The notes below the pieces were generated by a model. That model ran no database searches. It saw only the letters and a list, made by a program, of their open reading frames with translations, and was not told the DNA's origin. 64,000 nucleotides of DNA from an uncultured Anaerolineales bacterium. Its GTDB lineage: Bacteria > Chloroflexota > Anaerolineae > UBA1429. A program made the translations under genes and the position numbers. Position 1 is the stretch's first letter. Every line of letters starts with the position of its first letter. Below, one piece after another: positions 16,184 through 31,492 of this stretch. Location of the stretch: assembly GCA_964651255.1 (NCBI GenBank), contig CAZYWU010000001.1, positions 131,890-195,889 of the forward strand, written 5' to 3'.

Positions 16184-17182
16184 CTAGGTGATCTGGAGCG
16201 TGTAACTTGTGTGCGCCGGGCGATTTACATCGATGATGCGCTCGATGATCCGCCGGTCGATCTCTCGATCCCCGCTGACGATAATCACACGAAAGGTGTG
16301 CGGGCCGTCGACATTTTCCTCTATTCGAACCTCGCATCCCGTGGCGATGCGCAGATGGGTCGATAGCCCGTCAACGGTGCCTCTCGCCTGGTGCAGCCAG
16401 TTGGCTTTGAGCAGCAACTCTCGTTGTGTCTCCGGCGACCAGTGCTCGTCGACCAGATGGGCCATCCAGTCGTTGAGCCACGGCAGGAACGTCTCCGGTG
16501 CGGTATCTGGATTCAGGAACATGTCCCAGTGGGCAACGATCTGCTGGATTGGGCCGATCAGATCCTCAAAGACCAGCAGATAGCGCCCGATAAAGTCCGT
16601 TTGGGCGTATATCGGCGGAAGGTACTGCAGCCAGCGGCTTGCCCGCGATGGCATACCCACCCAGGGCTGAACAGGCGCCGGTCCCATCACGGTGATCGGG
16701 GCCTCTGGCGGCGGGCCAGCGGGGCTCTCCGGTGGTCGCCTGGAGGCGCGCCGGGTACCCAGCCGCTCCAGCATGGCCAGGTCCACGGGGGGCGACTCTA
16801 TTTCTTGCTCAGGCGGCACCTCTGCTTCTGGCGTTTCTTCGTGCGCTGTCATAGAGGGCTCTTCCGTCACAAGCTGCTCAAAGGTCAGGCGGAATGGCCC
16901 GATCGCGATCACATCGCCGGGCTTGAGGGGCCGCGGCTCGTTAGGGGCCAGGGGCAAGTCGTTCAGCTGCGTCCCGTTGCTGCTGCCGAGATCTTCGATC
17001 CGGTACGGTTCGCGATCGCCCAGGATCCTAGCATGAACCCGCGACACCCAGGCGTGAGCAAGAACCAGGCTGGCCTGGGTCGAGTCGCGGCCAATCAGGA
17101 CCAGCGGCTCCTCAATCGTATACTCTCTGGCCGGTTCGTCGGGTGACACGATCACCAGCCTGTAACGAGGTTGCTGAGTCAT
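16184..17182 (-). CDS. CIS baseplate wedge protein, P2 gpI-like (Afp12-type), with N-terminal FHA domain
   Basis: N-terminal FHA (LVLIGRDSTQASLVLAHAWVSRVHARI...SSNGTQLN), a Pro-rich linker, and a C-terminal Tail_P2_I-like domain (FLPWLNDWMAHLVDEHWS...). ATG at 17182, 10 nt after the baseplate-J stop. Confidence 0.75.
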   Translation of the reverse strand: MTQQPRYRLVIVSPDEPAREYTIEEPLVLIGRDSTQASLVLAHAWVSRVHARILGDREPYRIEDLGSSNGTQLNDLPLAPNEPRPLKPGDVIAIGPFRLTFEQLVTEEPSMTAHEETPEAEVPPEQEIESPPVDLAMLERLGTRRASRRPPESPAGPPPEAPITVMGPAPVQPWVGMPSRASRWLQYLPPIYAQTDFIGRYLLVFEDLIGPIQQIVAHWDMFLNPDTAPETFLPWLNDWMAHLVDEHWSPETQRELLLKANWLHQARGTVDGLSTHLRIATGCEVRIEENVDGPHTFRVIIVSGDREIDRRIIERIIDVNRPAHTSYTLQIT

Positions 17183-17192
17183 CTCGTCAGCC

Positions 17193-19178
17193 TCATTCCA
17201 CCATGATCTCGACCTGGTGAATATCGGAAACAACGACCTCGTGCGCCAGCAAGTCGATCTTGCGGTCCGCCTGGTGGGCACGATCCTCGTCGTCGATCCA
17301 ATACATGTCGATGTTCTGAACGTTGAGCAAGCCCTCTACCTTTTGGATACAGCTGTAGAGATCGGAAAGGTACAACTCGCGGCCGAAAGGCCATCCGGTG
17401 CCCGCCGGCCCGCCACGGAGCGGGTTCACGAACCGGTCCAGCGCTGAGCGGATGTCCGCACCCAGGCGCCGTTCATCGACCTCCGGTCGCGCTATGACCT
17501 GTGCGCTGATACGGATGCGCTTGTAGCCTGCAGCCTGTACCTCAAGCTGGGTCGTCAGCAGGCGGCGGGCGTTCAGAAACGCCGTGATCCGCTCCTGGAG
17601 GTCGGATGAAAGCGCCAGCCGGGGCAGGGGAATGTAGTGGGTGGCCTCCTCTTCAGGCAGGTTCGGAATCACGAGCACGTACACCTGGCCAGGGCCACTG
17701 CGGTCCGCTCCCATACCCGCAAAGGCCGTCTGGAGGCAACACACACGGGCAACCTCGCCCTTGAAGGCATCCAGGGTGAGGAACTCATAGTCCTCCGGCG
17801 TGACCGCGCGGTAACGCGATCGCAGCAGGTTGCGGGCCCGAAACATGGCCTGTTCGAGTGTCTCCTGATCCAAACCGCCCTGTGCTGCTGTGCGGTTTGA
17901 GGTGCGGTCGATGTAGGCCAGCGCCGCACGCGGCTCGGTGATCGAGGCTGCCCGCACATTGCCTGCCGTACCGCCGCCATAGCGGTAGCGCGAGAACCGG
18001 AGCTCAGCCCCGCGTGGCGGCAGGGCACCGTAGCGCAACACGGTACCGTCGCGCTGCCGGAGTGCGGGTCCAAAGCGTACCTCGCCGGTCGCGCTGTCCA
18101 GCGCGTAATGACGGTCCTGAGGGCCAGATTCGGCGAGGGTTTCAACCTCCTCCCATGGCTCCCATCCCTCCATGCCCGGCATCCAGATTTCGACGCGCTC
18201 ATCCGCGTGGCGCGGCAGGACGGGCGTGTGTTCCAGATGGAACACTTGGCCAGGAGACCCGTCGCTCCTGCCCAGCGCCTCATTGGCGATTTCTGTGGCA
18301 TGCGAGGCCATCACGGTCGCGCCCCAGGTCACCATTTCCAGACGCCGCAGAATGGGCGAGGTGGCGTAGGGGCGCTGATCTTCGCGCGGCGGCGTCACCT
18401 GACAGCGGATCCAGTAGGCTTCGATGCCATTGATCTCGGAGCGCGACATGACAGGCAGGTGCATCCGGACCTGTCCGGTAAAGCTCATACCGCCGGTCGA
18501 GTCCACCTCAACGTCCGTGTCGCGCCAGCCATTGGCGGTCCATGCCTGCCAGACGATGGGCGGCGATTCGGGGATGATATTCAGTCCCCCGGCCCGCACG
18601 GCAGCCATGTCCAACCCGATATAATGATGGTCCAGATTGACGTCGAACCCGACGTACAGCGCGTCGCCCTCGGCGGGGCGGTCCGGGCTGAATACGGAGA
18701 ACTCGCCGCTCAGCCGGGCCAGGGGCACCTCGTGATAGGCCATGCCGCCGTCGGCGCTGCGATAGCGCGTGACGATGTGCAGCAGCCGGGCGGGGCGGAT
18801 CTCCAGGCTCTCCTCGGTGGTAAAGACTACCGCCTCGCCGCCGGCTCGTGACGTGGCTGTGGCGGTGCCTCGCGGGACCGTGATGGTCTGCTGTTGTGGC
18901 GCGGAGAGGTAAAAGGTCACCGGCACAGAGGCAGCCTGCGGTGGCTCGAGTTGGATGCCCAGCAGGTTGAGCAGTTCGATATAGTGCCGCGCCGGCATCT
19001 GGTTGACCCGGTAGAGCAGGATATCGACCATCCATGCGAACAACTCAATCAGAGTGACGCCCGGGTCGCTGACGTTGTGGTCCGTCCATTCCGGACAATA
19101 CAGCGGGATGCGCCTCTTGGCCTCATCGACCAGGTCCTGAAAGGAGCGATCGTCGAGCGGCTGCGTGGGTAACGGCAT
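17193..19178 (-). CDS. CIS baseplate protein, phage baseplate J / gp6-like (Afp11-type)
   Basis: 661 aa with the N-terminal PLYCPEWTDHNVSDPGVTLIELFAWM motif of the baseplate-J family (TIGR02243-like). Confidence 0.85.
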   Translation of the reverse strand: MPLPTQPLDDRSFQDLVDEAKRRIPLYCPEWTDHNVSDPGVTLIELFAWMVDILLYRVNQMPARHYIELLNLLGIQLEPPQAASVPVTFYLSAPQQQTITVPRGTATATSRAGGEAVVFTTEESLEIRPARLLHIVTRYRSADGGMAYHEVPLARLSGEFSVFSPDRPAEGDALYVGFDVNLDHHYIGLDMAAVRAGGLNIIPESPPIVWQAWTANGWRDTDVEVDSTGGMSFTGQVRMHLPVMSRSEINGIEAYWIRCQVTPPREDQRPYATSPILRRLEMVTWGATVMASHATEIANEALGRSDGSPGQVFHLEHTPVLPRHADERVEIWMPGMEGWEPWEEVETLAESGPQDRHYALDSATGEVRFGPALRQRDGTVLRYGALPPRGAELRFSRYRYGGGTAGNVRAASITEPRAALAYIDRTSNRTAAQGGLDQETLEQAMFRARNLLRSRYRAVTPEDYEFLTLDAFKGEVARVCCLQTAFAGMGADRSGPGQVYVLVIPNLPEEEATHYIPLPRLALSSDLQERITAFLNARRLLTTQLEVQAAGYKRIRISAQVIARPEVDERRLGADIRSALDRFVNPLRGGPAGTGWPFGRELYLSDLYSCIQKVEGLLNVQNIDMYWIDDEDRAHQADRKIDLLAHEVVVSDIHQVEIMVE

Positions 19179-19185
19179 AGTAGCG

Positions 19186-19581
19186 CTACTCCTCGGGAAT
19201 CAGATAAAAGGGGTACACCAGGCTGCGGCTGGAATGGGTAGACCGGATTGTATACCTCACATTGATTAACATGCGGGCTGTATCCTCCGGGTCAGGGGAT
19301 GCGGTCACCTGCTCGACCTGGATTCGCGGTTCCCAGCGCCCCAGGGCCAGCCGCACAAAGCGCTCGGCCTGGGCGATGGTCTGTAGATTGTTGGGTGCAA
19401 AGACGATCTCATTCAGCCGGCAGCCGAACTCTGGGCGCATGACGCGCTGGCCGGGGGAGGTCATCAGGATGATGCGGATCGATTCCTCAATCTCCTGCTC
19501 CCCCGACACGGTGGCGATGCGACCGCGATGGTCCAGCCGCGGCGGAAAGGCCCAGCCTCTTCCGATGATATCGTCCGACAC
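19186..19581 (-). CDS. CIS baseplate wedge protein, gp25/GPW lysozyme-like (Afp9-type)
   Basis: 131 aa with the GRGWAFP...RPEFGC motif of GPW_gp25. Confidence 0.85.
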   Translation of the reverse strand: MSDDIIGRGWAFPPRLDHRGRIATVSGEQEIEESIRIILMTSPGQRVMRPEFGCRLNEIVFAPNNLQTIAQAERFVRLALGRWEPRIQVEQVTASPDPEDTARMLINVRYTIRSTHSSRSLVYPFYLIPEE

Positions 19582-19613
19582 GTGATGCTCCTTATCGCTG
19601 CTGAACGAAGGCG

Positions 19614-20018
19614 CTACCCTCCGGCCATGACCGTGCCCGTGGCGATCACGGTTCCGGCCGGGGCCGGGTTGATGTCATCGCAGGTCCGCGCGGAATCCCC
19701 GTTCCGCGCGACTCCCTGACCATTGACCAGCACCGTCGTGCTGCCCATCACAATGGTAGCCAGGTTGGTGGGCGGCACCTGAAAGCTTGGGCCCCCAATA
19801 GGTATGTGCGGCGGCTGGTTCACCGCCGTGCTATTGACCGTGGCGACCGGCATGCCCCCGATCATTACGTTGCTGCTGAGCCCTCCGTTGATCATGCCGT
19901 TGAATGGATGCCCGGGCGTTGGCGTTGGCACAGGACCGCCCGGCGAGGGCACCATCACGATGTGCGTATCCATCGCGGTGACCATGTCCCCCATTTTCGC
20001 GATCGGCTGTGCTGGCAT
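19614..20018 (-). CDS. PAAR-domain spike-tip protein (Afp10-type)
   Basis: 134 aa, Gly/Pro-rich with repeated xxGxP..G blocks and ARNGDS.C, typical of PAAR cones. Confidence 0.75.
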   Translation of the reverse strand: MPAQPIAKMGDMVTAMDTHIVMVPSPGGPVPTPTPGHPFNGMINGGLSSNVMIGGMPVATVNSTAVNQPPHIPIGGPSFQVPPTNLATIVMGSTTVLVNGQGVARNGDSARTCDDINPAPAGTVIATGTVMAGG

Positions 20019-20030
20019 GATGCTCGCCTG

Positions 20031-21731
20031 CTACGGGTTCAGCTGGATCATGGCACCCTTGATCGTCAGGTTGCCGCTGGCCTCTATTTCCATGTTCGCA
20101 CCAGCCTTGATGCTGACGTTCGTGCCCCCTTCGATCTCCAAGTCACCGTCGCCCTTGATCGTGATCTTTCGCCCATTATCGTCCAGAGATAGTACGGCGC
20201 CGCCCGAGGTCGTAATCTCCACCTTGCCATCATCGTCGTGCAGCACCAGGATGTGACCGCCGGCGGTCTCGATCTGGACAAAGGCCTCGTTTTCCTCCGC
20301 CAGAGTGATCTTGTGTCCCACTCGTGTGACCAGGGCGCGCTGGACGATACTCCCGTTGGCTACTGATGTAGCCCTGTCGATCGGGGTGGCATCCTGGCCG
20401 TTCCAGAGGCCGCCAATCACGACCGGGCGTTCGATGTCTCCCTGCTCAAAAGCCACCAGGACCTCGTCATTGACCTCGGGCAACCAGTAGATGCCACGAT
20501 CCGGACCGGCGCCCGTGCCGATGACGCGCGCCCAGGGGCTGCTCAGGTCCGGGTTCAGCCACGGGAACTTGACCGTGACGCGTCCCATCTCGTCGGGATC
20601 GTTGATATCGGTAACGATACCCGTCATCACTGGCCAGCTTGTACCGGGTCGTACGTCCCTGTCGAGCAGTCGCGCCAGCGTGTCGTCGCGGCGGCCGCGC
20701 ACGGTAAAGTACGTGACATAGTCGCGCTCTGTATTCCACACATGTCTGGCCGTGGTGACCCGATACGTGCCGCTGAACCGGTTCCCCAGCGCGGTGATGT
20801 TCGCCATCTTGCGGGCCTGCAACTCGGGCATGCCAAAGCACTCGCCTTCGGCCTCGACAAAGGCGCCGTCGTACTCGTCCAGTATGGCCTGTGCCAGTTC
20901 ATCCGCCTCGGCCTGGTCCGCGACACTGGTGGCGACAGTCAGCTCGCTGGCACTGCCAAAGACATTCTCTGCCAGGCTGCCGCCCGTGCCTTGCTCTCCG
21001 ATCGATGGCGCGGCCTCGCCCGATGTCGCCCGGCCCACGATCTCGTTTTTCGTGGAAGGGTCCCAGCCCCGCACCTGCACCTCACTGACCTGCTCGCCCA
21101 GGCTGAGGATGGGCCGGAAACTGCGCAGGTTCTCGCCCCACTCAAGATTGACAGTTTCGCCCTGTGCCGTGCCCGCCTTGAAGCAGAGGGTGCGACCCTC
21201 GACATAGACGTCATAGCCGATTCTGCGCGCTCGCTCGCGAAGAAACGCCATGTGGGTTTGGCCGTGCTGGAACACGTGCTTGTGCTCGGTCGATGTCGCC
21301 TCGACGTCCGCGCGCAGCTGCACCTGACTGGCGACATCGGACGCGATGGCGCTGTCGGTCATGTTGGTGTAGGTTCTGGTGATGGCACCGCGATGCAGGC
21401 GATGCGACCGGTCGTAGGCGCGCACCACCAGATCGGCGACTGTGCCCTCGCGAAAGTCAGGCTCGATCCCGGTGATCTCACCGTCAAAGAGCGCGGTCTC
21501 CCCGCGGCCCTGTTCATCAGCGACGCCCACTTCGAGGCTGGCCCCCAGGTCAAAGGGCCCGTTGTTGATCAGCTCGGCCCCCGTGTCGTGCACGTTCAGC
21601 ACACACATTGCCGGGAGCGTCAGGCTGCTCTCGACCTCGACCCGGTAGAGCTCGTCCATGACGGCGGTCTGGAGCGAGGTCCCGTTGATTTTGACATAGA
21701 GTTGTCGACTCAGGGCTGCATCGCGGCTCAC
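20031..21731 (-). CDS. VgrG-like central spike (gp27/gp5 fusion, phage late-control-D-like; Afp8-type)
   Basis: 566 aa with a gpD/VgrG N-terminal region and a C-terminal beta-helix repeat (GGAVLSLDDNGRKITIKGDGDLEIEGGTNVSIKAGANMEIEASGNLTIKG). Confidence 0.9.
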   Translation of the reverse strand: MSRDAALSRQLYVKINGTSLQTAVMDELYRVEVESSLTLPAMCVLNVHDTGAELINNGPFDLGASLEVGVADEQGRGETALFDGEITGIEPDFREGTVADLVVRAYDRSHRLHRGAITRTYTNMTDSAIASDVASQVQLRADVEATSTEHKHVFQHGQTHMAFLRERARRIGYDVYVEGRTLCFKAGTAQGETVNLEWGENLRSFRPILSLGEQVSEVQVRGWDPSTKNEIVGRATSGEAAPSIGEQGTGGSLAENVFGSASELTVATSVADQAEADELAQAILDEYDGAFVEAEGECFGMPELQARKMANITALGNRFSGTYRVTTARHVWNTERDYVTYFTVRGRRDDTLARLLDRDVRPGTSWPVMTGIVTDINDPDEMGRVTVKFPWLNPDLSSPWARVIGTGAGPDRGIYWLPEVNDEVLVAFEQGDIERPVVIGGLWNGQDATPIDRATSVANGSIVQRALVTRVGHKITLAEENEAFVQIETAGGHILVLHDDDGKVEITTSGGAVLSLDDNGRKITIKGDGDLEIEGGTNVSIKAGANMEIEASGNLTIKGAMIQLNP

Positions 21732-21747
21732 ATTGATAACCTCGCTG

Positions 21748-22407
21748 CTATTCCATCGGCGGGATGATGATCAGCCGTCCGGTGCGCAGGTGCAAAGGAT
21801 CGTCTATCCCGTTGGCCTGGGCGATCTGTCGCCACTTGGTGCTGTCTCCGTACGCGTCATAGGCGATGAGATCGAGCCGGTCGCCCGCATCGAGCATGCG
21901 TGTGGTCGGGGCGATCCCGCCCCCGGACGTGGGGTTCTGCCCCAGAATGTCAAAGGCATCGCTCACCTGCTGCAGGCTGATCTGGATCGTGCTGCGCACC
22001 GCGGTACCGGAGGGCAGAAACAGGCCGATCTGCTCGCTCATCTGCGTGATGACCGCCTCAAAGGAAAAGGCGCCCCAGATAAACATGCAATGGGGCGGTT
22101 CACTCTTGCCCGTGCGCGGGTCCGTGCGCGCGTCGTCTACCATCATCATGTTCCAGAGATGCGCTGTCAGAGAGCGGACATCCTGGCCCGCGTCCAGTGT
22201 GTCAAAGAGCAAGCGCAATGTCAGAGTCTGAGCGCCGCCCTGCTGGAACCGGATGTGCGGGATGTTCTTGCCTTTGGTATCTGCCTGCTCGTAAGAGTTA
22301 GTCTTGGCGATGGTGTACTCGTACGGGTTGAACATGCAGGGCACAGACTCCCCCGTGTTCTTGTTCACGAGCACTGCGGGCGCCAGACCTCCTCGTGTTG
22401 TCGGCAT
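21748..22407 (-). CDS. CIS tube-initiator / LysM-domain protein (Afp7 / P2 gpX-U-like)
   Basis: N-terminal PCMFNPYEYTI motif and a C-terminal LysM (DRLDLIAYDAYGDSTKWRQIAQANGIDDP). Confidence 0.85.
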   Translation of the reverse strand: MPTTRGGLAPAVLVNKNTGESVPCMFNPYEYTIAKTNSYEQADTKGKNIPHIRFQQGGAQTLTLRLLFDTLDAGQDVRSLTAHLWNMMMVDDARTDPRTGKSEPPHCMFIWGAFSFEAVITQMSEQIGLFLPSGTAVRSTIQISLQQVSDAFDILGQNPTSGGGIAPTTRMLDAGDRLDLIAYDAYGDSTKWRQIAQANGIDDPLHLRTGRLIIIPPME

Positions 22408-22421
22408 CTCTACGTTTCTCC

Positions 22422-24503
22422 TTAGCGCAGGCGCGAGCCACCCATGCGCTCACGCTCCACACGCAAACGATCTCTCAGCTTGCTGAACACACGTTCCGCC
22501 AGTTCTTCGATATCCGGAGCCCGTTCCGCTTGCGGAGACTCTTCAGATTCTGCCGGGGCAGTCTCCGTAGAGGAATCTGCGCGGGTTGTATCCGCGGGCG
22601 CCTCGGCGCGCCGGATAGGCGGGCCCGGCGAGTCCCCTCGATCTCGTGTAACGCGAGTTGGTGCAGCCATGGATGCGACCACCTGATCGATAGGCAGTAC
22701 CTGCCTCGGAAGTGGGTGGGGAGCGCCGGGCGTCAACCTCTGTTGCTCAGCCGTAGCCAGTTGGGCAGGGGTGCGGTCCGGGAAACCGGTCTGCCTGCGC
22801 ACAGGCGGATGTTGCGATGTCGGCGTCACGGCGGACAAGGCAGATCCTCCTGCTGAGGCTGGCGGCGTCTGGGCCGGCGGTACCTCCTGTACCCATTGCG
22901 CCGACTCGCGCGGTGACCGCGGCTGGATCGGAGGCGCGCTGGAGGGCGGGAGCTGTGCTATAGCTGGCTCAGGCCAGGGCGGTATCGTCTCAGGCTCGGT
23001 GCTCGCCTCAGTCGCAAAGCGCTGCAACTGCGCCCGGTAAGCCTCGGCCAGATCCAAGCTCGCAGGGACGCTCTGCACAGGAGCATGTTCCGAACCGGGT
23101 GCCCGCCGTTGTTCGGCCGCTGCGGTGACGGCTGGTGCCTGCACATCGGGACTGCGCCTCACAACCGGCTTTACTGGAGGCGCGTCGGGTTCGACCGCGG
23201 GCTCAAACGATGGTGCCTCCGGTCTGGTCAATGCGCCTTCTGGTGTCTCTGGGAGCGCCGCGGCAGCGGCCCGGATATGGTGTAAAGCATCTCTCTGTTC
23301 TACCCGCGCTGGCGACGGCTCGATGGCGTCAGACTGCAGCGTAACGGCTGGCGCGGGCGCCATGGGCATCTCGGGAATGGGCTCGCTATCGCTTGGCACA
23401 GGCTGCGTATCCGCCGGTCGTGCCACCTGCTCGCGCGTCGCCTCAGGCGTGGCGGTGGGGCCGGCGGGAGCAGATCTCTCTTCAGGTGCACGGTAGACCG
23501 CCTGTGCCCGGGAGATCGCCTCGGACTCGCGCCGCAGCGGTTGCGCGGAGCTAGATGCGTCCGAGGGGCCCGCCGTTCCAGTCTCCGCCGGCGGCGGCGT
23601 CTCGGCCGTCGTGTCCGCAAGATCAGTCGCGGGCCTTACTGGCACGCCTGGCGTCCCAGTATCGAAATCCGGCACAGCCGTCTCGCGCCTCACGGTCTGG
23701 GAAGTCGTTGGACCCTGCCCCTGGGGCGATACGGTTGCCTCTGTCGTCGAAACCGTGCTCTGCGTTTCCGCGGTACGCCGGATCAGTGGCGCTGCGAGCT
23801 GAGAGGTCGGCCTGTCCGCTGTGCCCTCGGCACGGGCTGGCCCTCGTGCCGCCTGTGTTCGGACCGTGTCCGTTGGCGTGCCCGCTTGTTGTGCCGGAGG
23901 CTGTTCATAGAGCTGCGAGACGGGTTTGGGCCGCGCCCCGGGCGCGGGAGGCGTGGCAGATGCCGTTGCGGAGGGCCGCGCGCCTCCTCGTGCCTGCCCA
24001 GCGGCCTGCGTACCTGGTGAGGCCTGGCTTGATGCCGGCGACCGGGGCCGCTGGAGCGCTCGCCGTACCTCTTCCACGGTAAAGCCGGGCCGTGGTGGGG
24101 CCAGAGGTTCCGAAGCTGGCTCTGCGTCCGGTGAGAGGGGACCCCCATCTCTCGCGCCCAGGGCGGACACCGCGCCCGTGAATCCTGACTGGTGGCCACG
24201 ACCGCGCTCAAGTATCTCTACTTCCGGAGTCATGAGCGCCAGCGCAGGGGATTGAGATGGTTCTGTGGCCGGTGCAGAGGCGGGCCTGGCCGGCTCGATG
24301 GTGCGCTCGATGACCGGTGACACGCGCGCCGGCGTTGGCTCGGCAATGCTCTGCACGACTGGATGCCTTGTCAGCGTCATGGGGGTATATCGCGTGGCCT
24401 GCCGCTGCAGAGGCCCGGGTTCCGGCTCCGGTATGATGTACCGGCGCTTGATATGCCGGGCGAAAGCCACGCTGACAAGTCGCAGGCCGTTCCCGTCTGT
24501 CAT
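22422..24503 (-). CDS. proline/alanine/threonine-rich low-complexity protein in the tape-measure (Afp14) position
   Basis: 693 aa. Position between tube 2 and the LysM protein matches the P2-like tube–tape-measure–U/X order. ATG overlaps the tube-2 stop (ATGA). Only the short N- and C-termini look non-repetitive. Confidence 0.5.
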   Translation of the reverse strand: MTDGNGLRLVSVAFARHIKRRYIIPEPEPGPLQRQATRYTPMTLTRHPVVQSIAEPTPARVSPVIERTIEPARPASAPATEPSQSPALALMTPEVEILERGRGHQSGFTGAVSALGARDGGPLSPDAEPASEPLAPPRPGFTVEEVRRALQRPRSPASSQASPGTQAAGQARGGARPSATASATPPAPGARPKPVSQLYEQPPAQQAGTPTDTVRTQAARGPARAEGTADRPTSQLAAPLIRRTAETQSTVSTTEATVSPQGQGPTTSQTVRRETAVPDFDTGTPGVPVRPATDLADTTAETPPPAETGTAGPSDASSSAQPLRRESEAISRAQAVYRAPEERSAPAGPTATPEATREQVARPADTQPVPSDSEPIPEMPMAPAPAVTLQSDAIEPSPARVEQRDALHHIRAAAAALPETPEGALTRPEAPSFEPAVEPDAPPVKPVVRRSPDVQAPAVTAAAEQRRAPGSEHAPVQSVPASLDLAEAYRAQLQRFATEASTEPETIPPWPEPAIAQLPPSSAPPIQPRSPRESAQWVQEVPPAQTPPASAGGSALSAVTPTSQHPPVRRQTGFPDRTPAQLATAEQQRLTPGAPHPLPRQVLPIDQVVASMAAPTRVTRDRGDSPGPPIRRAEAPADTTRADSSTETAPAESEESPQAERAPDIEELAERVFSKLRDRLRVERERMGGSRLR

Positions 24504-24931
24504 GACACCGTCACCATCTCGTAGGCCAGTTCCAGAGATTCTATCGCGATCGCGGAACTGCCCGCACTGAGCTCGGGCCCGCTCCACTTGGTGGGAAAGG
24601 CCATGTGAAAGTCCCAGCGGATAACTGGCTCACCGGCGTCGTCCAACAGCGTCACCGACACCTGCTTACGGGCCGCCATCAGCTGGCCCTGAATCACCTG
24701 GGTGTACCAGGCCATCAGGTCGCTGCCGGTGGCCACGCCTCGTTTGAGCGTCAGCGTGCCTCGGCGAACGCGCCCGGGCAGAGGGTGCGATCCCACGTTA
24801 TAGCCGCCCTCTTTCTGCTCCTGGATCTCTACCTCCAGTGCCGGGAGGGTGCATTCGGTGAATGTCGCTCCCGGAAGACCGTCGATCTGGACGCTAAAGC
24901 GATAGGCGGGATGGGCATCCGGACGTTCCAT
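24500..24931 (-). CDS. CIS inner tube protein, paralog 2 (Afp5/T4 gp19-like)
   Basis: 143 aa with YRFSVQIDGL...FTECT..., homologous to the tube protein at 25459-25902. Confidence 0.85.
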   Translation of the reverse strand: MERPDAHPAYRFSVQIDGLPGATFTECTLPALEVEIQEQKEGGYNVGSHPLPGRVRRGTLTLKRGVATGSDLMAWYTQVIQGQLMAARKQVSVTLLDDAGEPVIRWDFHMAFPTKWSGPELSAGSSAIAIESLELAYEMVTVS

Positions 24932-25089
24932 CAGGTCCCGACCTCATTGGTGTGAATTCTGTCGACCTCGCGCACCCATCGCCGGCGCTCGGGATGTTCG
25001 AGTGACAGGATGTCGTCCCGTGACCAGTGCAAGTAATAGGCCAGGTACGCTACCTCCTCGAGCATCCGGTCGAGGGGGTAGCGCGTCAT
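24931..25089 (-). CDS. 52-aa conserved-looking microprotein, translationally coupled between the 119-aa ORF and tube 2
   Basis: The internal ATG at 25089 overlaps the stop of the upstream ORF (ATGA). Its own stop overlaps the tube-2 ATG (TGATG). The longer 69-aa ORF in the track would overlap the upstream gene by 55 nt. Confidence 0.4.
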   Translation of the reverse strand: MTRYPLDRMLEEVAYLAYYLHWSRDDILSLEHPERRRWVREVDRIHTNEVGT

Positions 25090-25445
25090 TCCCCCAGTGG
25101 CACGATCTCCTGTCGAAAGACCGTATGACAGTTCGGGCATTCCACCTCGATCGTATCGGCGCCGGTCTCGTTGATACGCCTGTAAAAGTCTTGCAGGTAG
25201 GCCATATCTGCGGCGAACAGGTTTTCGATGACATGAGGGGTCACCTGGTCCAGACTGCCCAGGCGAGTGACGACGCGCGACAGCAGCAGTATCGCCAGGT
25301 AAGCCTCGTTAGATCGCACGCGCATGTCCCGGAGCGGGGCGATCTCATCCATTGCCGTGGCCAGCCTCATCACGCCCTGGCGATGGACCCGCCCCTCTCC
25401 GTCGACGTACCCGCGCGGAAGCTCGAAGGGGAACTCTGTCTGCAT
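25086..25445 (-). CDS. 119-aa CIS-associated hypothetical protein (Afp6-position) with C-terminal CPNC zinc-ribbon-like motif
   Basis: Located between the two tube genes. GGAGG SD 5 nt before the ATG. No confident family assignment. Confidence 0.55.
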   Translation of the reverse strand: MQTEFPFELPRGYVDGEGRVHRQGVMRLATAMDEIAPLRDMRVRSNEAYLAILLLSRVVTRLGSLDQVTPHVIENLFAADMAYLQDFYRRINETGADTIEVECPNCHTVFRQEIVPLGE

Positions 25446-25458
25446 AAGGGCCTCCGGT

Positions 25459-25902
25459 CTAGCTTACGCGGAATAGGCCCTCATGGGTGATCACGAGCTC
25501 CTCGACCCCCAGCTCATTGCTATCCGCCTTGATGGACGGACCGGACACCTTGACTGGCCAGGCTTTCTCAAAGTTCCAGCGGGCCACCTCGTTCAGGCCC
25601 TGGTCGAACATGATGATCGATCCCTCACGGCGGGCCTCGTCGACCTTGCCCTGAACGACCAACTCACGCCAGTCCCAGATGTCCATGTTGTCGGTGATAC
25701 CGCGCTTGAGCGTGATGTTCTCCCATTTGAGCCGGCCGGGGATTTTGAGCACATGCTCTCGCCCGGCTTCATCGACGACCTTGTGCTCGATCACCTCGTT
25801 CTCGGAGCCGATGCCGGAGCACTCGGTAAAGTACCCGGTGACCTCGCCCGCAACATCAATCGCATAGTGAAAACCAACAAGCGGATCTTTTCGGTCCGTC
25901 AT
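25459..25902 (-). CDS. CIS inner tube protein, paralog 1 (Afp1/T4 gp19-like)
   Basis: 147 aa, FHYAIDVAGEVTGYFTECSG...LKRG, the classic eCIS/T6SS-Hcp-like tube signature. Confidence 0.9.
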   Translation of the reverse strand: MTDRKDPLVGFHYAIDVAGEVTGYFTECSGIGSENEVIEHKVVDEAGREHVLKIPGRLKWENITLKRGITDNMDIWDWRELVVQGKVDEARREGSIIMFDQGLNEVARWNFEKAWPVKVSGPSIKADSNELGVEELVITHEGLFRVS

Positions 25903-25938
25903 GGATCGCTCTCCTTGCTCTACTTAGCTGGGCTGGCG

Positions 25939-27504
25939 CTAGGCCGCGGCGGGCCCCGCCCACTGGCTGATACGGAAGATCACAAACTCCGCCGGCTTGA
26001 CCGGGCAGATGCCGATCTCGATGATCAACTGGCCCAGGTCGCGCACTTCGACCGGATTCAGTTCCTCATCGCACTTTACATAAAACGCCTCATTGGGGGT
26101 TGTGCCAAAGAGTGCGCCGGATGTCCACACTGTACGCAGGAAGGCCGTCACATCGCGCCTGACGCGCGCCCAGAGGTCCGGGTCGTTAGGCTCAAAGACG
26201 ACCCACTGTGTGCCGCGCTCGATGGATTCCTCCACCATGTTAAAGAGGCGACGCACATTGATGTATCGCCACGCCGGATCGCTGCTCAGCGTGCGGGCGC
26301 CCCAGATGCGGATTCCGCGGCCGGGGAAGGCACGGATGCAGTTCACCCCGATGGGGTTCAGCGCATCCTGCTCGCCTCGGGTGAGCTGAACCGGAAGGCC
26401 AGTGGCGCCGCGGATCACCTCGTTGGCCGGGGCCTTGTGCACCCCGCGCTCGGCATCGCTGCGCGCATAGACACCCGCAATGTGGCCAGAAGGCGGAATG
26501 CGGATGCTCCCCTTACCCTTGACCATATCTGCGGTCTCGATCCAGGGATAGTACAGCGCAGCGTACTTGGTATCATAGTTGCTGGACTGGCGCCACTGCA
26601 GCATCGCCTGAGGACTGAGATCGGGCGGGCAGTCCAGAATAGCAAAGCTGTACTTGCTCTGCTCGCAGTGCTCGTACAGCGCCTGCTGTACCGCCTGGAC
26701 ATCCTGCAGCGACATCTCGCCAGACTGGAAGCTCTGCATCAGGTCCGGCACCGCCACCATCGTGACCTCGTCTACGGGCGTGAGGCCACCCAGCCCGGTG
26801 CGTTCTGCCACTTCGCCCCGATAGGCCGCCACGGTGAGCGCTTTGGTCTCGATCTTGCCGCCCTGCAGGGTATACTCGCCGGCGCGCGGTCTGCGCTCCG
26901 CCAGTGTGCCCTTGCTTTGCTGCACCTGCACCGTGATGAACCGAGACCGCGTATTGACCACCGTCTCGACATTCTGATCGCCCTTGCCCAGAGTTAGATC
27001 CTGAAAGGTCTCTGTACCGCCGGGAGCTGAGATGATCAGCGTAAAGGTCTCGGCGGCCGGGTCCTCAGGCTCGCGCACTGTGACCTTGATCTCGTTGCCG
27101 CTCGGGCCGCCAGACCTGGCCTTGATCTGAAGCGTGTCGCCGCCGCCTTCCGCGCGCGCCGGTAGTGCCGCGACAGCCGGCGTGGCCAGCCGTTCGTCCA
27201 CAGAGGCGCCCAGTGCCTTGACAGAGACTACGTAGCAGCGACTACCCCCGTTCGCAAAGTAACCATAGACCGAATAGGGCAGGTAGGCCCCCTCGACAAA
27301 CCCACCGAATTTGTCGGTGTACTGGGTCCAGTTGGTGATGGCCACGGGGCGATTCTGGAGCGAGGTCACCTCGCCATTGCTGACTTCCTCAGCCTTTTCG
27401 GTAAAGCCGATAAAGGCTGCGACAGCCGTGCCCACGGCCTCGATGGGCCGGGTTCCGCCCTCACGTTCTTCGATGTAAACACCAGGTGACAGATAAGTTG
27501 GCAT
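25939..27504 (-). CDS. contractile sheath protein (Afp2-4 / phage tail sheath family)
   Basis: Starts MPTYLSPGVYIEE (the ATG at 27504 is preceded by AGGA). 521 aa. Only one sheath gene is present in the locus. Confidence 0.9.
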   Translation of the reverse strand: MPTYLSPGVYIEEREGGTRPIEAVGTAVAAFIGFTEKAEEVSNGEVTSLQNRPVAITNWTQYTDKFGGFVEGAYLPYSVYGYFANGGSRCYVVSVKALGASVDERLATPAVAALPARAEGGGDTLQIKARSGGPSGNEIKVTVREPEDPAAETFTLIISAPGGTETFQDLTLGKGDQNVETVVNTRSRFITVQVQQSKGTLAERRPRAGEYTLQGGKIETKALTVAAYRGEVAERTGLGGLTPVDEVTMVAVPDLMQSFQSGEMSLQDVQAVQQALYEHCEQSKYSFAILDCPPDLSPQAMLQWRQSSNYDTKYAALYYPWIETADMVKGKGSIRIPPSGHIAGVYARSDAERGVHKAPANEVIRGATGLPVQLTRGEQDALNPIGVNCIRAFPGRGIRIWGARTLSSDPAWRYINVRRLFNMVEESIERGTQWVVFEPNDPDLWARVRRDVTAFLRTVWTSGALFGTTPNEAFYVKCDEELNPVEVRDLGQLIIEIGICPVKPAEFVIFRISQWAGPAAA

Positions 27505-27605
27505 CTCTCTATCCTTTGACTGATAGCAGGCCGGGGACATGACCGGCGTGCGACGAGGTCCACTGGTCCGGAGCTATAGAGCGATACCCTCCTTTCTTGT
27601 GGTGG

Positions 27606-28436
27606 CTATATCTCGAGGTCGTATGATTCCAGGCTTTGCGGCGGCACGGGCACGCGGTGCGTCGCCTCGCGGCCATCCGCCTGCACTCGGAGCCGGTATT
27701 CTCCGCCCGATAGCCCACCAAAGCGATAGCGTCCAAAGTGGTCGGTGAGGCAAGTCTGCCCCGTCTCTATCACGCTAACTGTGGCCCTGGGTACAGCAGG
27801 GCCACCCCTGGCCTGAAAAACGATGCCCGCGATCTCAAAGGTCGTCGACCGCGTAGCTTCGGCAGCATTGCGGTCAAGAACATCCACGCGCCGAGAGATG
27901 ACCCACGGGCTCGTAAAGGCCACGGCACGCTCCATGGCCAACGTGACTGTATAGTTGATCGAGGGCCTGAGCTGGTTCTCCATGACGCCCCAGAGATCGG
28001 GCAGGTTCTCGATGGCGCGCGAAGGCTGAGCGGTTCGCGCGTGCACCGGATAGGGCTGATTGCGCAGGCCGGGCTCAAGGATTTCCGTGTCCAGCGTCGG
28101 CGTGCCAGCCAGCGCACCAAGCACGCGCCACAGTATCGCGTGTTCATCCTCCACCTGATTCTGCGTCCAGACGGTGACCAGGTACGAGAGATCGTAGCGC
28201 AGAGGCGCCAGCCGCTTGCTGACCTGGCCTTCAGAATCACGCTCGACGATCCACTCTTGTGAACGAAGCTCCGTATTCTCCCGTATGTCGTACAGGTAAA
28301 AGTTGATCGTCGGGCGCGTCAGTCCAGCAGCCCAGTCGCCGGTGGGCTGGTCAAAGCTCACCGTGACACTGTCCGTGTCAAAGTTGCCGTGCTTTAGCAC
28401 CAGATTCCGGATGGTCTCGTCGAGCTGATTGATCAT
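27606..28436 (-). CDS. CIS tail terminator/cap, DUF4255 (Afp16/Pvc16-like) with carboxypeptidase-regulatory-like C-terminal domain
   Basis: N-terminal LTRPTINFYLYDI DUF4255 signature. C-terminal GIVFQARGG...GRYRFGGLSGGEYRLRV beta-sandwich. Confidence 0.8.
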   Translation of the reverse strand: MINQLDETIRNLVLKHGNFDTDSVTVSFDQPTGDWAAGLTRPTINFYLYDIRENTELRSQEWIVERDSEGQVSKRLAPLRYDLSYLVTVWTQNQVEDEHAILWRVLGALAGTPTLDTEILEPGLRNQPYPVHARTAQPSRAIENLPDLWGVMENQLRPSINYTVTLAMERAVAFTSPWVISRRVDVLDRNAAEATRSTTFEIAGIVFQARGGPAVPRATVSVIETGQTCLTDHFGRYRFGGLSGGEYRLRVQADGREATHRVPVPPQSLESYDLEI

Positions 28437-28505
28437 CCCCTGCCTCGAATTAGCTCTAGCACCTGACTAGCCTGCAATGACGCGCCGAGGTGTTACCCTT
28501 CTGGG

Positions 28506-29195
28506 CTATGCTTCCTCCAACTCTTCCTCTTCTTGCCGGCGCACTGTCTGTACCGCTTCTTCCTCCTCCTCCTCGTCCTCGGCCTGGCGCTGGACAGCGT
28601 CGCCTCCGGTGTCTGGCGCCCTGCTGGCCAGGCGCTGCACCACCTGATCGGCCATGGCGTCCGCCTCGAGTTCGGCGGGGTCATTGGCAGCACCTACATC
28701 CAGCTTGGCGCCATCTTGCTGCTGTGCAACGTGGGCGAGTTCGTGAGCCAGCAAGCGCTGCCCGTCCCCGGTCGCCGGGTTGTACTGGCCGGCGGAGAAA
28801 AAGATGTCGTTGCCCCGCGTAAAGGCCCGTGCTGACAGCTCAGAGTTCAGCGTATCAGCCTCAGAGTCGTTGTGTATGCGAACCCCCGCAAAGTCGGCCC
28901 CAAAGGCTCCTTCCATGCTCTGTCTGGTCGCGTGATCCATGGCTGACCCCGATCCAGCCTGGGAATCGATGGCGCGCTCCACATGCTCGGGGGCCACAAA
29001 GGCGTCTTCCTGTGCAAAGCGCCGCGCGATCCGGTTGCCCGCGCGCCGGGCGACCTCGCGCAGGACGTGCGGTGTCAGCACCCGCGCCAGACGAGATGGC
29101 CGGGCGCGTGGCGACGTTTCGGCGTCGACTGTGTTCGAGGGCTGCTGTACAGCCAGTCTACTTCTTGTGCGGATCCATTCATGCTCAGTACTCAT
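28506..29195 (-). CDS. DUF4157-like protein with HExxH motif and polyglutamate C-tail (possible CIS effector/payload)
   Basis: LLAHELAHVAQQQ zincin-like motif inside a DUF4157-type core. C-terminus RQAEDEEEEEEAVQTVRRQEEEELEEA. ATGA overlap with the ATPase stop. Confidence 0.65.
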   Translation of the reverse strand: MSTEHEWIRTRSRLAVQQPSNTVDAETSPRARPSRLARVLTPHVLREVARRAGNRIARRFAQEDAFVAPEHVERAIDSQAGSGSAMDHATRQSMEGAFGADFAGVRIHNDSEADTLNSELSARAFTRGNDIFFSAGQYNPATGDGQRLLAHELAHVAQQQDGAKLDVGAANDPAELEADAMADQVVQRLASRAPDTGGDAVQRQAEDEEEEEEAVQTVRRQEEEELEEA

Positions 29196-31315
29196 CGTCC
29201 CGGCCTCCCCGATGATGTGTCGTGGATTGCCACGACACGACGGACGAGTTCCATTCCAAAGTCATCTTCATCGATCAGTTTGCCGAGCTTTTGAAACTCG
29301 CGGCGCACGCCCCACAAGAGATGACGCATGGCAACGATCTCGCCATCCCTGGCCGCCAAAAAGGCGGCGTTCACGAGGGCGTTGCGGATGCTGCCGCCAG
29401 AGAGCCGAAAACGGCCCGCAAGCGAGGCCAAGTCCACATCAGCCGCCAGGGGCAGTTGCGCAGGCACGGTGCGCTCCCAGATGAGGCGGCGCGACGCTTC
29501 GTCCGGAAACGGGAATTCGATACTGAACTGCAGCCTGCGCAGGAACGCCTCATCCAGATTCTGTCTCAGGTTGCTGGTGAGGATCACGACGCCGTCGTAT
29601 TCTTCCACCTTTTGCAGCAGGTAACTGATCTCTATGTTCGCGTAGCGGTCATGGGCATCTTTGGTCTCGGAGCGCTTGCCAAAGAGCGCATCGGCCTCGT
29701 CAAAGAGTAGGATCGCGTTCGAGTCGCGGGCCAGATCAAATATCCTGTCCAGGTTCTTTTCGGTTTCGCCGATATATTTGCTGACCACGCCCGAGAGATC
29801 GATCTTGTACAGGTCCAGCGACAGATCGGTGGCGATCACCTCTGCGGCCATAGTCTTGCCCGTGCCCGAGGGCCCAGCGAACAAGGCTGAAAGGCCCTGG
29901 CCCCGCGCCGATTGGCGTCCAAAGCCCCAGGCACCATAGACCACGTGTCGGAAGCGAAACTGGTCGCACATCTCGTGAATCTGAGCCGTGCGGTCGGCAG
30001 GCAAGACGAGGTCTTCCCAGGTGTGTCTGGCGACGATCTGGCTGGCAAGATCACCCAGCCTCACGGCACTCACGGCCCGAGAGGCGGCCGCCAGATCATC
30101 AAAGGTGATGACAGGCTCCGAGGAGCGACGCTGCCAGGCATGTTCCGCGGCACCGCGGGTGGCAACGTGGATCTGTGCGCCATCGAGCCTGTAGCGTGCT
30201 GCCAGGACTGGCAGGTCGTCCGGATCAGCCAGGGCGCGTCCTTGAAGGGCGCGCTGCCAGAGTACCAGGCGCCCCTCATAGTCCGGTGCCGGCAGGTCGA
30301 GCACCGCCACGCGCACCGCCTCCGAGGCCGGCTGCGGCAGGCTCGTGTGCCTGGGTGTGTGCCAGACCACGGTGAGCCCGGGGTGTTCCAACAGGGTTGC
30401 CCATTCGAATGCGGCATAGCTGTCGTGAATGGCAACACGATCTGTGATCTCAACATACAGGACAGCGTCGTACAGCAGCGCATCTCGCGCGGCTTGTTGC
30501 ACGCGCAGCAGCACCGCCTCTTGCTGATCCGAATCGTCAACGGAGAGCGTCACCATGGGGCGAGCTTGCTGTGCGGCGCAGTCCTGGGCCAGAGCGCATG
30601 ATGTCCAGGAGCGATCGGAACGCACCTGGATCCACAGCGGCCGGTCGCCACTGGTGATAAGCGACCAGATCGCTTCACGCGCCTCCGCCGGGTATAGATC
30701 GGGCAGCCAGGTGCTATCTTCGCCCCTCCAGTAAGGTGAAGCCGAGGCTGGACCCTCCTTGTCTGGCGACAGCAAGAAGCGAACAACCTGCGGGGCAACC
30801 TGAGCCGTACGTCTCAGAAGCGTATCGGGTCCCTCAGCGGGCGGTGACAGGATCATGAGCCCGTAACGCGAGAGGGTAGCCTCCCCATGAAAGAGGGTGC
30901 GCGCGGCCAGCCGTGCGCCAAGATCAGGCCACAGCAGAGCGAGAAGGAGGTCGACGATGGGGCGTTTGCAGGTAACGTCATCCTGGAGGAATCCAAAGAT
31001 GCGTTCGTAACGGAGGTCGAACTCGGGTAACAGACAGATGAGCAGTATCTGAGACTCGGTCGCGCTCAGATCAAAGACACGTTTCAGATGCGTCCAGCGA
31101 TCTTCTTCGGAAAGAGGTGGAAAGGCAGCAGGAGCAGAAGTTACCAGTGACGCACCGAAGGGTTGCTCTAAAAGTTGAAGAAACTCATGATCGGTAATAA
31201 ATAGGCCACGAAACTCCCCATTGTCTGGCGCGCGCTCTTCATACAACCTTCTGGCGGTTTGCACCAGAAAGCCATCGATGCGCCGCAGTTCGTTGAGAAG
31301 GGTGCCCCCGACCAT
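29192..31315 (-). CDS. CIS AAA+ ATPase (Afp15-type) with large N-terminal extension
   Basis: 707 aa. C-terminal AAA+ module with Walker A GPSGTGKT and Walker B ILLFDEADALFGKR. N-terminal roughly 440 aa is non-ATPase. Confidence 0.85.
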   Translation of the reverse strand: MVGGTLLNELRRIDGFLVQTARRLYEERAPDNGEFRGLFITDHEFLQLLEQPFGASLVTSAPAAFPPLSEEDRWTHLKRVFDLSATESQILLICLLPEFDLRYERIFGFLQDDVTCKRPIVDLLLALLWPDLGARLAARTLFHGEATLSRYGLMILSPPAEGPDTLLRRTAQVAPQVVRFLLSPDKEGPASASPYWRGEDSTWLPDLYPAEAREAIWSLITSGDRPLWIQVRSDRSWTSCALAQDCAAQQARPMVTLSVDDSDQQEAVLLRVQQAARDALLYDAVLYVEITDRVAIHDSYAAFEWATLLEHPGLTVVWHTPRHTSLPQPASEAVRVAVLDLPAPDYEGRLVLWQRALQGRALADPDDLPVLAARYRLDGAQIHVATRGAAEHAWQRRSSEPVITFDDLAAASRAVSAVRLGDLASQIVARHTWEDLVLPADRTAQIHEMCDQFRFRHVVYGAWGFGRQSARGQGLSALFAGPSGTGKTMAAEVIATDLSLDLYKIDLSGVVSKYIGETEKNLDRIFDLARDSNAILLFDEADALFGKRSETKDAHDRYANIEISYLLQKVEEYDGVVILTSNLRQNLDEAFLRRLQFSIEFPFPDEASRRLIWERTVPAQLPLAADVDLASLAGRFRLSGGSIRNALVNAAFLAARDGEIVAMRHLLWGVRREFQKLGKLIDEDDFGMELVRRVVAIHDTSSGRPGR

Positions 31316-31386
31316 GTGTGCCTCGCGTTCACATCGAGAGGAGAAGGACGCTATCAGGCACGACTAACGATTGTTGACTCCATACT

Positions 31387-31415: not shown

Positions 31416-31492
31416 CGGATTTTCGAGCGGGGTGGCGTGGAACGTGGTATAATCGCGGGCATCGACGCTTCGATGCATTATCCAGGGAAAAC

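Follow-up and report, generated by a model that had tools for sequence, protein, structure and literature searches.

The 64-kb stretch of DNA considered here comes from an uncultured Anaerolineales bacterium of the Chloroflexota (contig CAZYWU010000001.1, positions 131,890 to 195,889; below, "the window" means this whole stretch, numbered from its first letter), and it carries a contractile injection system (CIS) whose genes form one minus-strand operon. Proteins encoded in the window were assigned to families with Pfam, PHROGs and, in part, NCBIfam. The 5'-most gene of the operon encodes an AAA+ ATPase and the 3'-most a kinase; the intergenic gaps are all at most 101 nt, several genes overlap, and the GC content is uniform (0.58–0.66). 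The two genes at the 3' end concern us most: a baseplate protein of the Cis12 type fused to an FHA domain (332 aa; 16184..17182, minus strand), and a bitopic Ser/Thr kinase (990 aa; 13197..16169, minus strand). The kinase start lies 14 nt past the Cis12 stop, and the operon thus extends beyond position 16184, the 3' limit of the region covered by an earlier sequence-only reading of this DNA. That reading overlooked the kinase gene (16169-13197), the FHA domain on the Tail_P2_I protein, a small DUF6760 gene, and the chaperone identity of a 119-aa gene. The architecture that it flagged adds one more member to an established CIS subtype, IId; the useful part is the operon's end.

The FHA–Cis12 protein (Pfam FHA 5.4e-17, Tail_P2_I 4.2e-13) consists of an FHA domain (residues 1–105), a disordered Pro/Ala/Glu linker (106–180), and a Tail_P2_I baseplate domain (181–332). 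An AlphaFold2 model built on 69 homologues has a mean pLDDT of 82.5, with values above 93 in the FHA domain, 45–60 in the linker, and a confident C-terminal domain. Its top Foldseek match in the PDB is 9gtp_A, from the Streptomyces coelicolor baseplate, followed by the phosphothreonine readers OdhI and GarA, with which the FHA domain aligns at a TM-score of 0.85–0.9; at the sequence level, the C-terminal domain matches 9gtp_E (1.5e-12). The phosphothreonine-site residues (G31, R32, S47, R48, H50, S67, N69, G70 and T71) are invariant in 69 of 69 sequences, and are kept in 73–75 of the 75 sequences of a second Cis12 set. Both this conservation and the model predict that the Cis12 FHA is a canonical phosphothreonine-binding domain. 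The linker, rich in Pro, Ala and Glu, has a median length of 70 residues (range 50–224). We find the fused architecture in 74 clusters at 90% identity, all named ones being Chloroflexota or Anaerolineae, and a profile of the C-terminal domain retrieves 404 representatives of 50% identity clusters at E <= 1e-30, with an FHA domain present in 114 of the best 150.

FHA proteins also occur near CIS baseplate genes elsewhere. In a locus of another CIS lineage, with a split VgrG and an Afp11 of about 1000 aa (L086, 10001-17003), Tail_P2_I is fused to PASTA, and three FHA proteins (FHA alone, FHA-NHL and FHA-FHA-SLT) lie past a 517-aa gene without a family match. Loci grouped as Myxococcota within the split-VgrG lineage (L055 and L075–L078) encode small FHA proteins downstream of the baseplate genes. 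Judging from such gene neighbourhoods, the association of FHA domains with CIS baseplates may extend beyond the Chloroflexota.

The kinase (Pfam Pkinase 4.8e-45, FHA 1.2e-17, FixG_C and PLAT) comprises, in order, a Hanks-type Ser/Thr kinase domain, a linker containing the conserved motif SLATM, an FHA domain, two Ig-like domains, a single transmembrane helix (approximately residues 675–702), an Ala-rich segment, and a PLAT domain. It is the only operon protein with a hydrophobic transmembrane segment; none was found in any structural protein. Because there is only one such helix and it is placed after the Ig-like domains, the predicted topology must be N-in/C-out, with the kinase, FHA and Ig-like domains in the cytoplasm and the C-terminal region outside. 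The catalytic K, D, N and DFG residues are conserved in 12–13 of 13 orthologues, and the kinase is apparently active; its own FHA domain likewise has the canonical GR, SRxH and NGT residues. The external region differs among relatives (PLAT, TSP3_bac or Ig_VWA7), a variability that would fit a sensor or receptor. In the C-terminal 166 aa (13197-13697, minus strand), the PLAT domain in its native order matches mainly profile positions 52–112, in two stretches with 43.8 bits, whereas placing its last 43 residues first yields one stretch over positions 1–112 with 54.4 bits; the domain appears to be circularly permuted.

A kinase–FHA gene lies 3' of FHA–Cis12 in 22 of 24 distinct loci (the window counted), either directly adjacent or one DUF4157 gene away, and the pairing holds down to approximately 55% sheath identity (L024). 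This conservation, together with the 14-nt spacing, led us to reject chance adjacency as an explanation for the kinase. Where Cis12 is unfused (L025, L028 and L035), the same slot holds a protein that matches only the Ig-like and transmembrane part of the kinase; in L025 it is an Ig-repeat membrane protein, and no fibre is present. Read from the predicted architectures, what is constant in this slot across IId sub-lineages is a protein that spans the membrane once, with an N-terminus predicted to be cytoplasmic, and to which the Chloroflexota have, on the same reading, added a kinase and an FHA domain, along with an FHA domain on the baseplate.

The content of the slot varies further among relatives. 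In an Acidimicrobiales locus (L037, 15797-16855), Cis12 is followed by a 352-aa protein with a Pro-rich N-terminus, a CxxC...CxxC zinc ribbon, one transmembrane helix (162–188) and a C-terminal domain, an architecture resembling that of the Streptomyces membrane protein CisA. Two Chloroflexi loci (L031, 5995-13000; L038, 12313-17376) have a Cis12 with a different N-terminal extension, without a family match, and there the slot is taken up by a DUF4159 protein followed by PKMT-like methyltransferases, either one or two of them, that have a regulatory domain, again with no fibre. In Aggregatilineales (L011, 16534-21699; L017, 17383-21615; L019, 9255-14492), the single kinase is replaced by a giant protein of 1400–1750 aa, in which two kinase domains are combined with three or four FHA domains. 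Finally, L003/L014 carry two or three tandem kinases, plus an extra pair, FHA-LysM and kinase–FHA, upstream of the ATPase.

The remainder of the operon, given here from its 5' end and entirely on the minus strand, encodes the body of the particle. Upstream of the ATPase gene lies a promoter-like site (31387..31415; TTGACA, a 17-nt spacer and TATGAT, with 11 of 12 consensus matches); a scan of 19 kb gave no other strong site, although the overall number of sites did not exceed that in shuffled sequence, and by consensus match only it is a sigma-70-like candidate promoter. The first gene encodes the AAA+ ATPase, which has a winged-helix domain and is Afp15/Cis15-like (29192..31315; Pfam WHD 4.1e-29, AAA 3.9e-26). 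It is followed by a 229-aa eCIS_core/DUF4157 protein (28506..29195; eCIS_core 1.7e-31) with an HExxH motif and an acidic poly-Glu tail and without a toxin domain, possibly a cargo or a loading factor (the role of DUF4157 is discussed in PMC8213781). Extra DUF4157 proteins, of approximately 490–670 aa or truncated at the locus edge, lie 3' of the kinase in L010, L012, L013 and L016. The cap or tail terminator (Afp16/Cis16-like; 27606..28436; Pvc16_N 9.6e-34, CarboxypepD_reg 8.1e-11) has 9gts_0A as its best PDB match (1.8e-24), over residues 1–167 only. The extra C-terminal, Ig-like CarboxypepD_reg domain of the cap is absent from S. coelicolor Cis16 (225 aa) and also from farther Chloroflexota relatives (213 aa in L003).

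The only sheath gene (Cis2-like, with Pfam sheath domains; 25939..27504) sits in an open reading frame (ORF) that itself extends to 27540; the start is probably M13 of this ORF (27504), the first residue that aligns with Streptomyces Cis2. The inner tube (Cis1a-like; 25459..25902; Phage_T4_gp19 5.4e-36) is followed by a tail assembly chaperone-like gene of 119 aa (25086..25445; PHROG 508, 3.8e-07), which is kept in all related loci, and by the small DUF6760 gene (24931..25140, alternative start 25089), which overlaps the 3' end of the chaperone gene. The DUF6760 identity comes from a homologous 71-aa gene in L001 that carries PF20546, with which the window translation was aligned by eye. These two genes (together 24931-25445) overlap in different frames between the tube and tape-measure-like genes, an arrangement that recalls the G/GT frameshift pair known from phage tails. 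Next come the second tube paralogue (an Afp5/Cis1b-like tube initiator; 24500..24931; Phage_T4_gp19 2.8e-38) and, at the tape-measure position, a Pro/Ala-rich protein of 693 aa (22422..24503) that has no Pfam, PHROG or NCBIfam match; its place and size (approximately 660–740 aa) are kept in related loci, and a start at M29 would give a 4-nt overlap with the tube stop, corresponding to an overlap in L001. The genes that follow encode an Afp7/Cis7-like tube initiator with a C-terminal LysM-like region (21748..22407; CIS_tube 2.7e-24), a contiguous VgrG spike (gp27 plus gp5, 566 aa; 20031..21731; Phage_base_V 1.1e-27 and Phage_GPD; best PDB match 9gtr_q, 1.5e-49), a PAAR spike tip (19614..20018; PAAR_motif 1.1e-11), a gp25-like baseplate wedge (Cis9; 19186..19581; GPW_gp25 1.9e-26), and a single-copy Baseplate_J protein of 661 aa (Afp11/Cis11; 17193..19178; Pfam Baseplate_J; NCBIfam TIGR02243 1.4e-133), whose best PDB match is 9gtp_1K, over the full length (2.5e-141). 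A prophage remnant was rejected as an identity for the locus: capsid, portal, terminase and integrase genes are missing, the GC content is uniform, and the locus and its flanks are kept in a relative with 84% sheath identity.

These genes place the locus in subtype IId, defined in dbeCIS (Chen et al. 2019) by one afp11 of ordinary length, a contiguous afp8, a PAAR gene (afp10), and the absence of afp12/afp13 from most loci (PMC6899500). In the window, Phage_GPD and Phage_base_V lie in one 566-aa VgrG ORF, Baseplate_J (661 aa) and PAAR are each encoded once, and in place of canonical afp12/afp13 we find only the small Tail_P2_I-type baseplate protein. The sheath groups with Streptomyces Cis2, both in its PDB matches and in a neighbour-joining tree. 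The locus is a subtype IId CIS and a new member from the Anaerolineales. Its VgrG shares 94% identity with the VgrG of an uncultured Anaerolineales metagenome-assembled genome (MAG), and the approximately 35 closest related loci are nearly all from Chloroflexota (Anaerolineae, Aggregatilineales, Ardenticatenales and Chloroflexia).

The best solved relative is the cytoplasmic CIS of S. coelicolor, for the sheath, Afp11, the Cis12 domain, VgrG and the cap alike. For the sheath, 8bky ranks first in the PDB (E 1.8e-160, 538 bits), with an alignment that stays colinear from M13 along the full length; next come the haloarchaeal membrane-anchored CIS 9ezm (365.7 bits), the Anabaena member of the thylakoid-anchored cyanobacterial systems known as tCIS (193), and then Pvc2 (190), AlgoCIS (183) and Afp2/3 (165–167). 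Sheath identity is 55.5% to S. coelicolor Cis2 over 499 aligned columns, 55.3% to Chloroflexia MAGs, and only 33–39% to Myxococcota loci with two sheaths and a split VgrG. The neighbour-joining tree, a distance tree in which a single Streptomyces sequence is the sole named reference, assigns the window to an Anaerolineae clade that has Chloroflexia as its nearest neighbours and Streptomyces plus Acidimicrobiales beyond them, away from those Myxococcota loci.

The sequence-only reading had described an atypical architecture with a single sheath gene, the ATPase as the first gene, and no fibre or receptor-binding protein in the operon. The three observations are borne out: Pfam finds one sheath ORF in the window, the ATPase (31315-29192) is 5'-most, and comparison with Pfam and PHROGs gave no fibre or receptor-binding match for any protein of the operon. 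The word atypical does not stand. The layout follows the published IId definition cited above, and among related loci with both genes, actinobacterial ones (L037 and L083) included, the ATPase is always upstream of the sheath; the architecture is atypical only relative to Afp/PVC and is the norm for its own lineage. Afp and PVC (lineage I) share with the window the sheath, tube, VgrG, PAAR, gp25, Baseplate_J, cap and AAA ATPase, but have three sheath paralogues (Afp2-4 and Pvc2-4, separate PDB chains) against one sheath ORF here. They also have an Afp13 fibre, a large Afp12 and an ATPase near the 3' end, whereas in the window a kinase follows the baseplate genes and the ATPase comes first; sheath similarity to them reaches 165–190 bits, versus 538 to Streptomyces.

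The system of S. coelicolor (CIS-Sc; 8BKY, 9GTP, 9GTR and 9GTS) shares with the window its IId membership, one sheath, two tube paralogues, a contiguous VgrG, a single Cis11 of approximately 650 aa, a small Tail_P2_I-type Cis12, and the lack of an Afp13 fibre; the matches to 9gtp_1K, 9gtp_E and 9gtp_A point to a baseplate wedge of Cis11 and small Cis12 like that of CIS-Sc. Streptomyces Cis12 has 190 aa and no FHA domain, in contrast to 332 aa with FHA here, and PAAR is present in the window and absent from S. coelicolor. In both systems a bitopic N-in/C-out membrane protein is encoded right after the baseplate genes. In Streptomyces this is CisA (SCO4242), which has a disordered N-terminus, one transmembrane helix and a substrate-binding-like C-terminal domain, without kinase, FHA or Ig-like domains; its topology has been shown experimentally, and the window kinase matches it in position and predicted topology. 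Compared by architecture only, the slot protein is not a CisA-type adaptor: kinase, FHA, Ig-like, transmembrane and PLAT parts occupy the slot.

Published work on this subtype describes machines that stay inside the cell. The Streptomyces IId CIS are free cytoplasmic particles without a conventional fibre (Casu et al. 2023, 2025), and their contraction requires CisA (Casu et al.); direct contact between CisA and the particle is not shown in published work. More recently, cryo-tomography revealed unattached intracellular particles in Roseiflexus, Calidithermus and Deinococcus (Gaisin et al., ISME J 2026; PMC12998442). The imaged systems belong to a Chloroflexota/Deinococcota clade within IId, which adjoins Streptomyces in a tree of concatenated sheath and Afp11. 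The window is of the same IId lineage as this clade (Roseiflexus castenholzii, Thermogemmatispora, Calidithermus, Deinococcus); Anaerolineales are not named in the main text of that paper, whose Rupite MAGs include one Aggregatilineales bacterium. The Chloroflexia loci L024 and L032, sister to the Anaerolineae clade in our sheath tree, share FHA–Cis12 and the kinase. We consider it likely that the system in the window is an intracellular IId CIS. The earlier suggestion that it acts from inside the producer or at its membrane is supported by the Streptomyces sheath match, the tree and the cryo-tomography of relatives (PMC12998442), and the check that the suggestion had proposed, placement of the sheath, puts it beside the Streptomyces cytoplasmic CIS. 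This mode is likely, but for the lineage of the window (Chloroflexota IId) it has already been published. The same reading named Streptomyces and cyanobacteria as the hosts of fibre-less systems; that list is dated and imprecise, leaving out the haloarchaeal and Chloroflexota/Deinococcota systems and passing over the baseplate-extension anchors of cyanobacterial tCIS. The FHA domain on the baseplate and the adjacent membrane kinase are, as far as genes can tell, the strongest argument for the intracellular mode.

That mode has to be set against an extracellular CIS (eCIS) released by lysis, in which the kinase would be an unrelated neighbour and the receptor-binding element would have escaped recognition, being encoded elsewhere in the genome or residing in the Ig-like domain of the cap or another divergent protein. 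Fibre genes are fast-evolving, and most eCIS operons have none identified (PMC12923769); our view of the genome spans 64 kb, and the cap does have its extra CarboxypepD_reg domain. Nevertheless, Pfam finds no fibre-like gene among the called genes in the rest of the window, nor in those relatives whose downstream genes were scanned in the same way. The conserved pairing and tight spacing described above argue against the kinase being a chance neighbour, and an FHA domain finds phosphothreonine only where a kinase and ATP exist, that is, inside the cell. Moreover, preparations from relatives contain almost only contracted sheaths, unlike stable eCIS (PMC12998442). We regard release as an eCIS as highly improbable.

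Another explanation would keep the system in the producer and turn it outward: membrane-anchored and T6SS-like (after the type VI secretion system), as in haloarchaea, with the kinase as a stable anchor and the spike and its cargo sent across the envelope into neighbouring cells. Haloarchaeal CIS (9EZM) and cyanobacterial tCIS (7B5H) both lack a conventional fibre, act from inside the producer and have a dedicated membrane anchor, which is a six-transmembrane protein encoded upstream in haloarchaea and baseplate extensions in tCIS; a catalogue of receptor-binding domains lists the latter as 'membrane bound tail-fibers'. In the window, by contrast, the membrane link would be non-covalent and phosphorylation-dependent, and baseplate parts with transmembrane extensions of their own, as in tCIS, are not found (Afp11 has 661 aa, versus 1231 aa for All3317). 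The haloarchaeal sheath is the second-best solved relative, and the haloarchaeal mode of action has been correlated with a conserved membrane-anchor gene. Outward firing would also suit the PAAR-tipped VgrG and the DUF4157 protein (DUF4157 genes of relatives may encode toxins), and the ectodomain varies among relatives as a sensor of neighbours might. Against this, every member of the nearer clade that has been imaged has particles lying unattached in the cytoplasm, the full-length match to Streptomyces Cis2 is much stronger than that to the haloarchaeal sheath, and no toxin-immunity pair is visible in the window. Outward firing from a stable anchor therefore strikes us as improbable.

The means by which cytoplasmic CIS get to the membrane, and the trigger of their firing, are left unsettled by two recent papers. 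Roseiflexus lacks close cisA homologues, and its mechanism may differ (PMC12998442). An FHA reader on the baseplate and a kinase in the CisA slot offer a concrete hypothesis for how a CisA-less cytoplasmic CIS finds the membrane: a IId CIS with phosphothreonine-gated docking of its baseplate to the membrane through the kinase. We hold this composite reading to be evenly poised between right and wrong, and the phospho-docking step, taken singly, to fall slightly short of that.

From the gene content we infer the following course. By homology with the solved S. coelicolor particle, the VgrG-PAAR spike, Cis7 and Cis1b initiators, gp25, Cis11 and Cis12 would form the baseplate; the tube and the single sheath would polymerise along the 693-aa tape-measure-like protein; the Cis16 cap would end the particle; and the AAA ATPase and DUF4157 protein would serve in assembly or cargo loading. 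As in the imaged relatives, the particle would be assembled free in the cytoplasm, and, provided that each wedge has one Cis12 as in the Streptomyces structure, it would display six FHA domains per baseplate. On sensing a signal, the ectodomain would then switch on the kinase, which would autophosphorylate on threonine; a candidate site is Thr312 in the SLATM motif, in the linker between the kinase domain and its FHA, kept in 10 of 13 orthologues. Binding of this phosphothreonine by the baseplate FHA would dock the particle on the inner face of the cytoplasmic membrane, where the sheath would contract and pierce the membrane of the producer itself. The producer could then die or lyse, as in Streptomyces, or else the spike and cargo (the DUF4157 protein) could be expelled.

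Several observations weigh against phosphothreonine-gated docking. The system is known here from genes alone. In 3 of 13 orthologues, Ser, Ala or Asn takes the place of Thr312, two of the 24 loci have FHA–Cis12 without an adjacent kinase (L009 and L029), and the evidence for the pair in Chloroflexia consists only of the uncultured MAG loci L024 and L032. No toxin effector is recognisable among the window proteins and a cargo is not evident; no PP2C phosphatase was found in the window either. Pairs of FHA proteins and Ser/Thr kinases are abundant in Chloroflexota, and could serve assembly or expression instead. Particles of Roseiflexus and Deinococcota were seen unattached in the cytoplasm (PMC12998442), and because of this any docking must be transient.

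The nearest functional parallel lies in the T6SS. In its threonine-phosphorylation pathway, known from the Pseudomonas aeruginosa H1-T6SS and from Agrobacterium, a membrane Hanks-type kinase with an outward sensor domain (PpkA) acts together with the phosphatase PppA and the FHA protein Fha1/TagH, through which phosphothreonine is coupled to a membrane-located contractile machine. The window likewise ties a membrane Hanks-type kinase and an FHA protein to a contractile machine: the Pkinase match, the one transmembrane helix and the conserved FHA binding sites are all in place, and the window FHA domains give weak matches to the VI_FHA/TagH model of NCBIfam. However, in the T6SS the FHA protein is a free scaffold, whereas here FHA is fused to a phage-type baseplate wedge protein, and the window kinase, unlike its T6SS counterpart, has an FHA domain of its own along with Ig-like domains. 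T6SS core genes (TssJLM, TssBC and ClpV) and a PppA-type phosphatase are missing from the 64 kb. The resemblance, drawn by analogy, is one of mechanism and not of membership.

It also suggests a different use for the same parts. The system could be the same intracellular IId CIS with a kinase and FHA domains that regulate assembly or stability and not docking, as PpkA/Fha1 do, with phosphorylation of Cis12 or another component switching particle formation on and off. FHA domains and Ser/Thr kinases are classical signalling partners, and besides the TagH (T6SS-associated) matches there are weak NCBIfam matches to FhaB/FipA; the particles of relatives are free in the cytoplasm and not docked, and CIS production in Roseiflexus varies with growth condition and niche (PMC12998442). 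The geometry of the parts is nevertheless better suited to capturing a partner, in that the FHA domain is tethered covalently, by a long flexible linker, to a peripheral wedge protein, and the kinase occupies the CisA/fibre slot with CisA topology. No conserved threonine is seen in the consensus of the Cis12 linker. Furthermore, the Ig-like and transmembrane module stays in the slot where kinase and FHA are missing, and since it persists there, the conserved function would be that of the membrane protein itself and not signalling. We think assembly control unlikely.

If phosphothreonine-gated docking is right, it would link Ser/Thr signalling to regulated cell death or injection, and the fibre slot of phage-tail machines would be one that a signalling receptor can refill. 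A bolder and tentative form of the idea, which we believe somewhat more probably wrong than right, is that the Cis12 FHA domains serve as intracellular 'tail fibres', tethered to the baseplate, and recognise as their receptor a phosphothreonine that the membrane kinase of the same system has placed; Ser/Thr signals coming from a variable sensor domain outside the cell would then decide when the phage-tail machine fires. Given the frequency of FHA among the best Cis12-type representatives and the Myxococcota-type loci with FHA proteins, the principle may be wider. The terms FHA, kinase and phosphorylation do not occur in the main text of Gaisin et al. 2026 (PMC12998442), and FHA/kinase coupling is therefore not part of the published description of the clade. 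FHA is not mentioned in the main texts of key CIS papers, and searches of open-access papers and preprints for FHA or kinases tied to eCIS or CIS gave only T6SS or unrelated work. The FHA–Cis12/membrane-kinase variant is widespread, and we did not find it described in the open-access literature and preprints searched.

The surroundings of the operon are housekeeping or unrelated in character. One flank carries MobB, a GT4 glycosyltransferase, UPRTase and POR, the other LarE/LarB/LarC, and the rest of the window includes gyrB, gatB, EPSP synthase, G6PD and ATP synthase genes. Two large ORFs without a family match (7561-9468, minus strand; 36085-37263, plus strand) look like antisense artefacts by composition and were set aside, and an ORF at 38459-40018 (plus strand) is weakly glycosyltransferase-like. 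The relatives L001/L002, with 84% sheath identity, have the same ATPase-side neighbours as window positions 29192-36000 (POR, a TPP enzyme, UPRTase, GT4 and MobB), apart from an additional GFO_IDH_MocA gene that separates MobB from the ATPase; both of these loci leave out the far side, where the window has LarC/B/E. The CIS island looks old and vertically inherited in this group. Farther along, all the genes of an F-type ATP synthase operon are present (AtpI-like, a, b, delta, alpha, gamma and beta; 52118-63875, minus strand); this operon sits downstream of another alpha plus gamma pair (61103-63875), with a 339-aa gene without assignment and G6PD in between.

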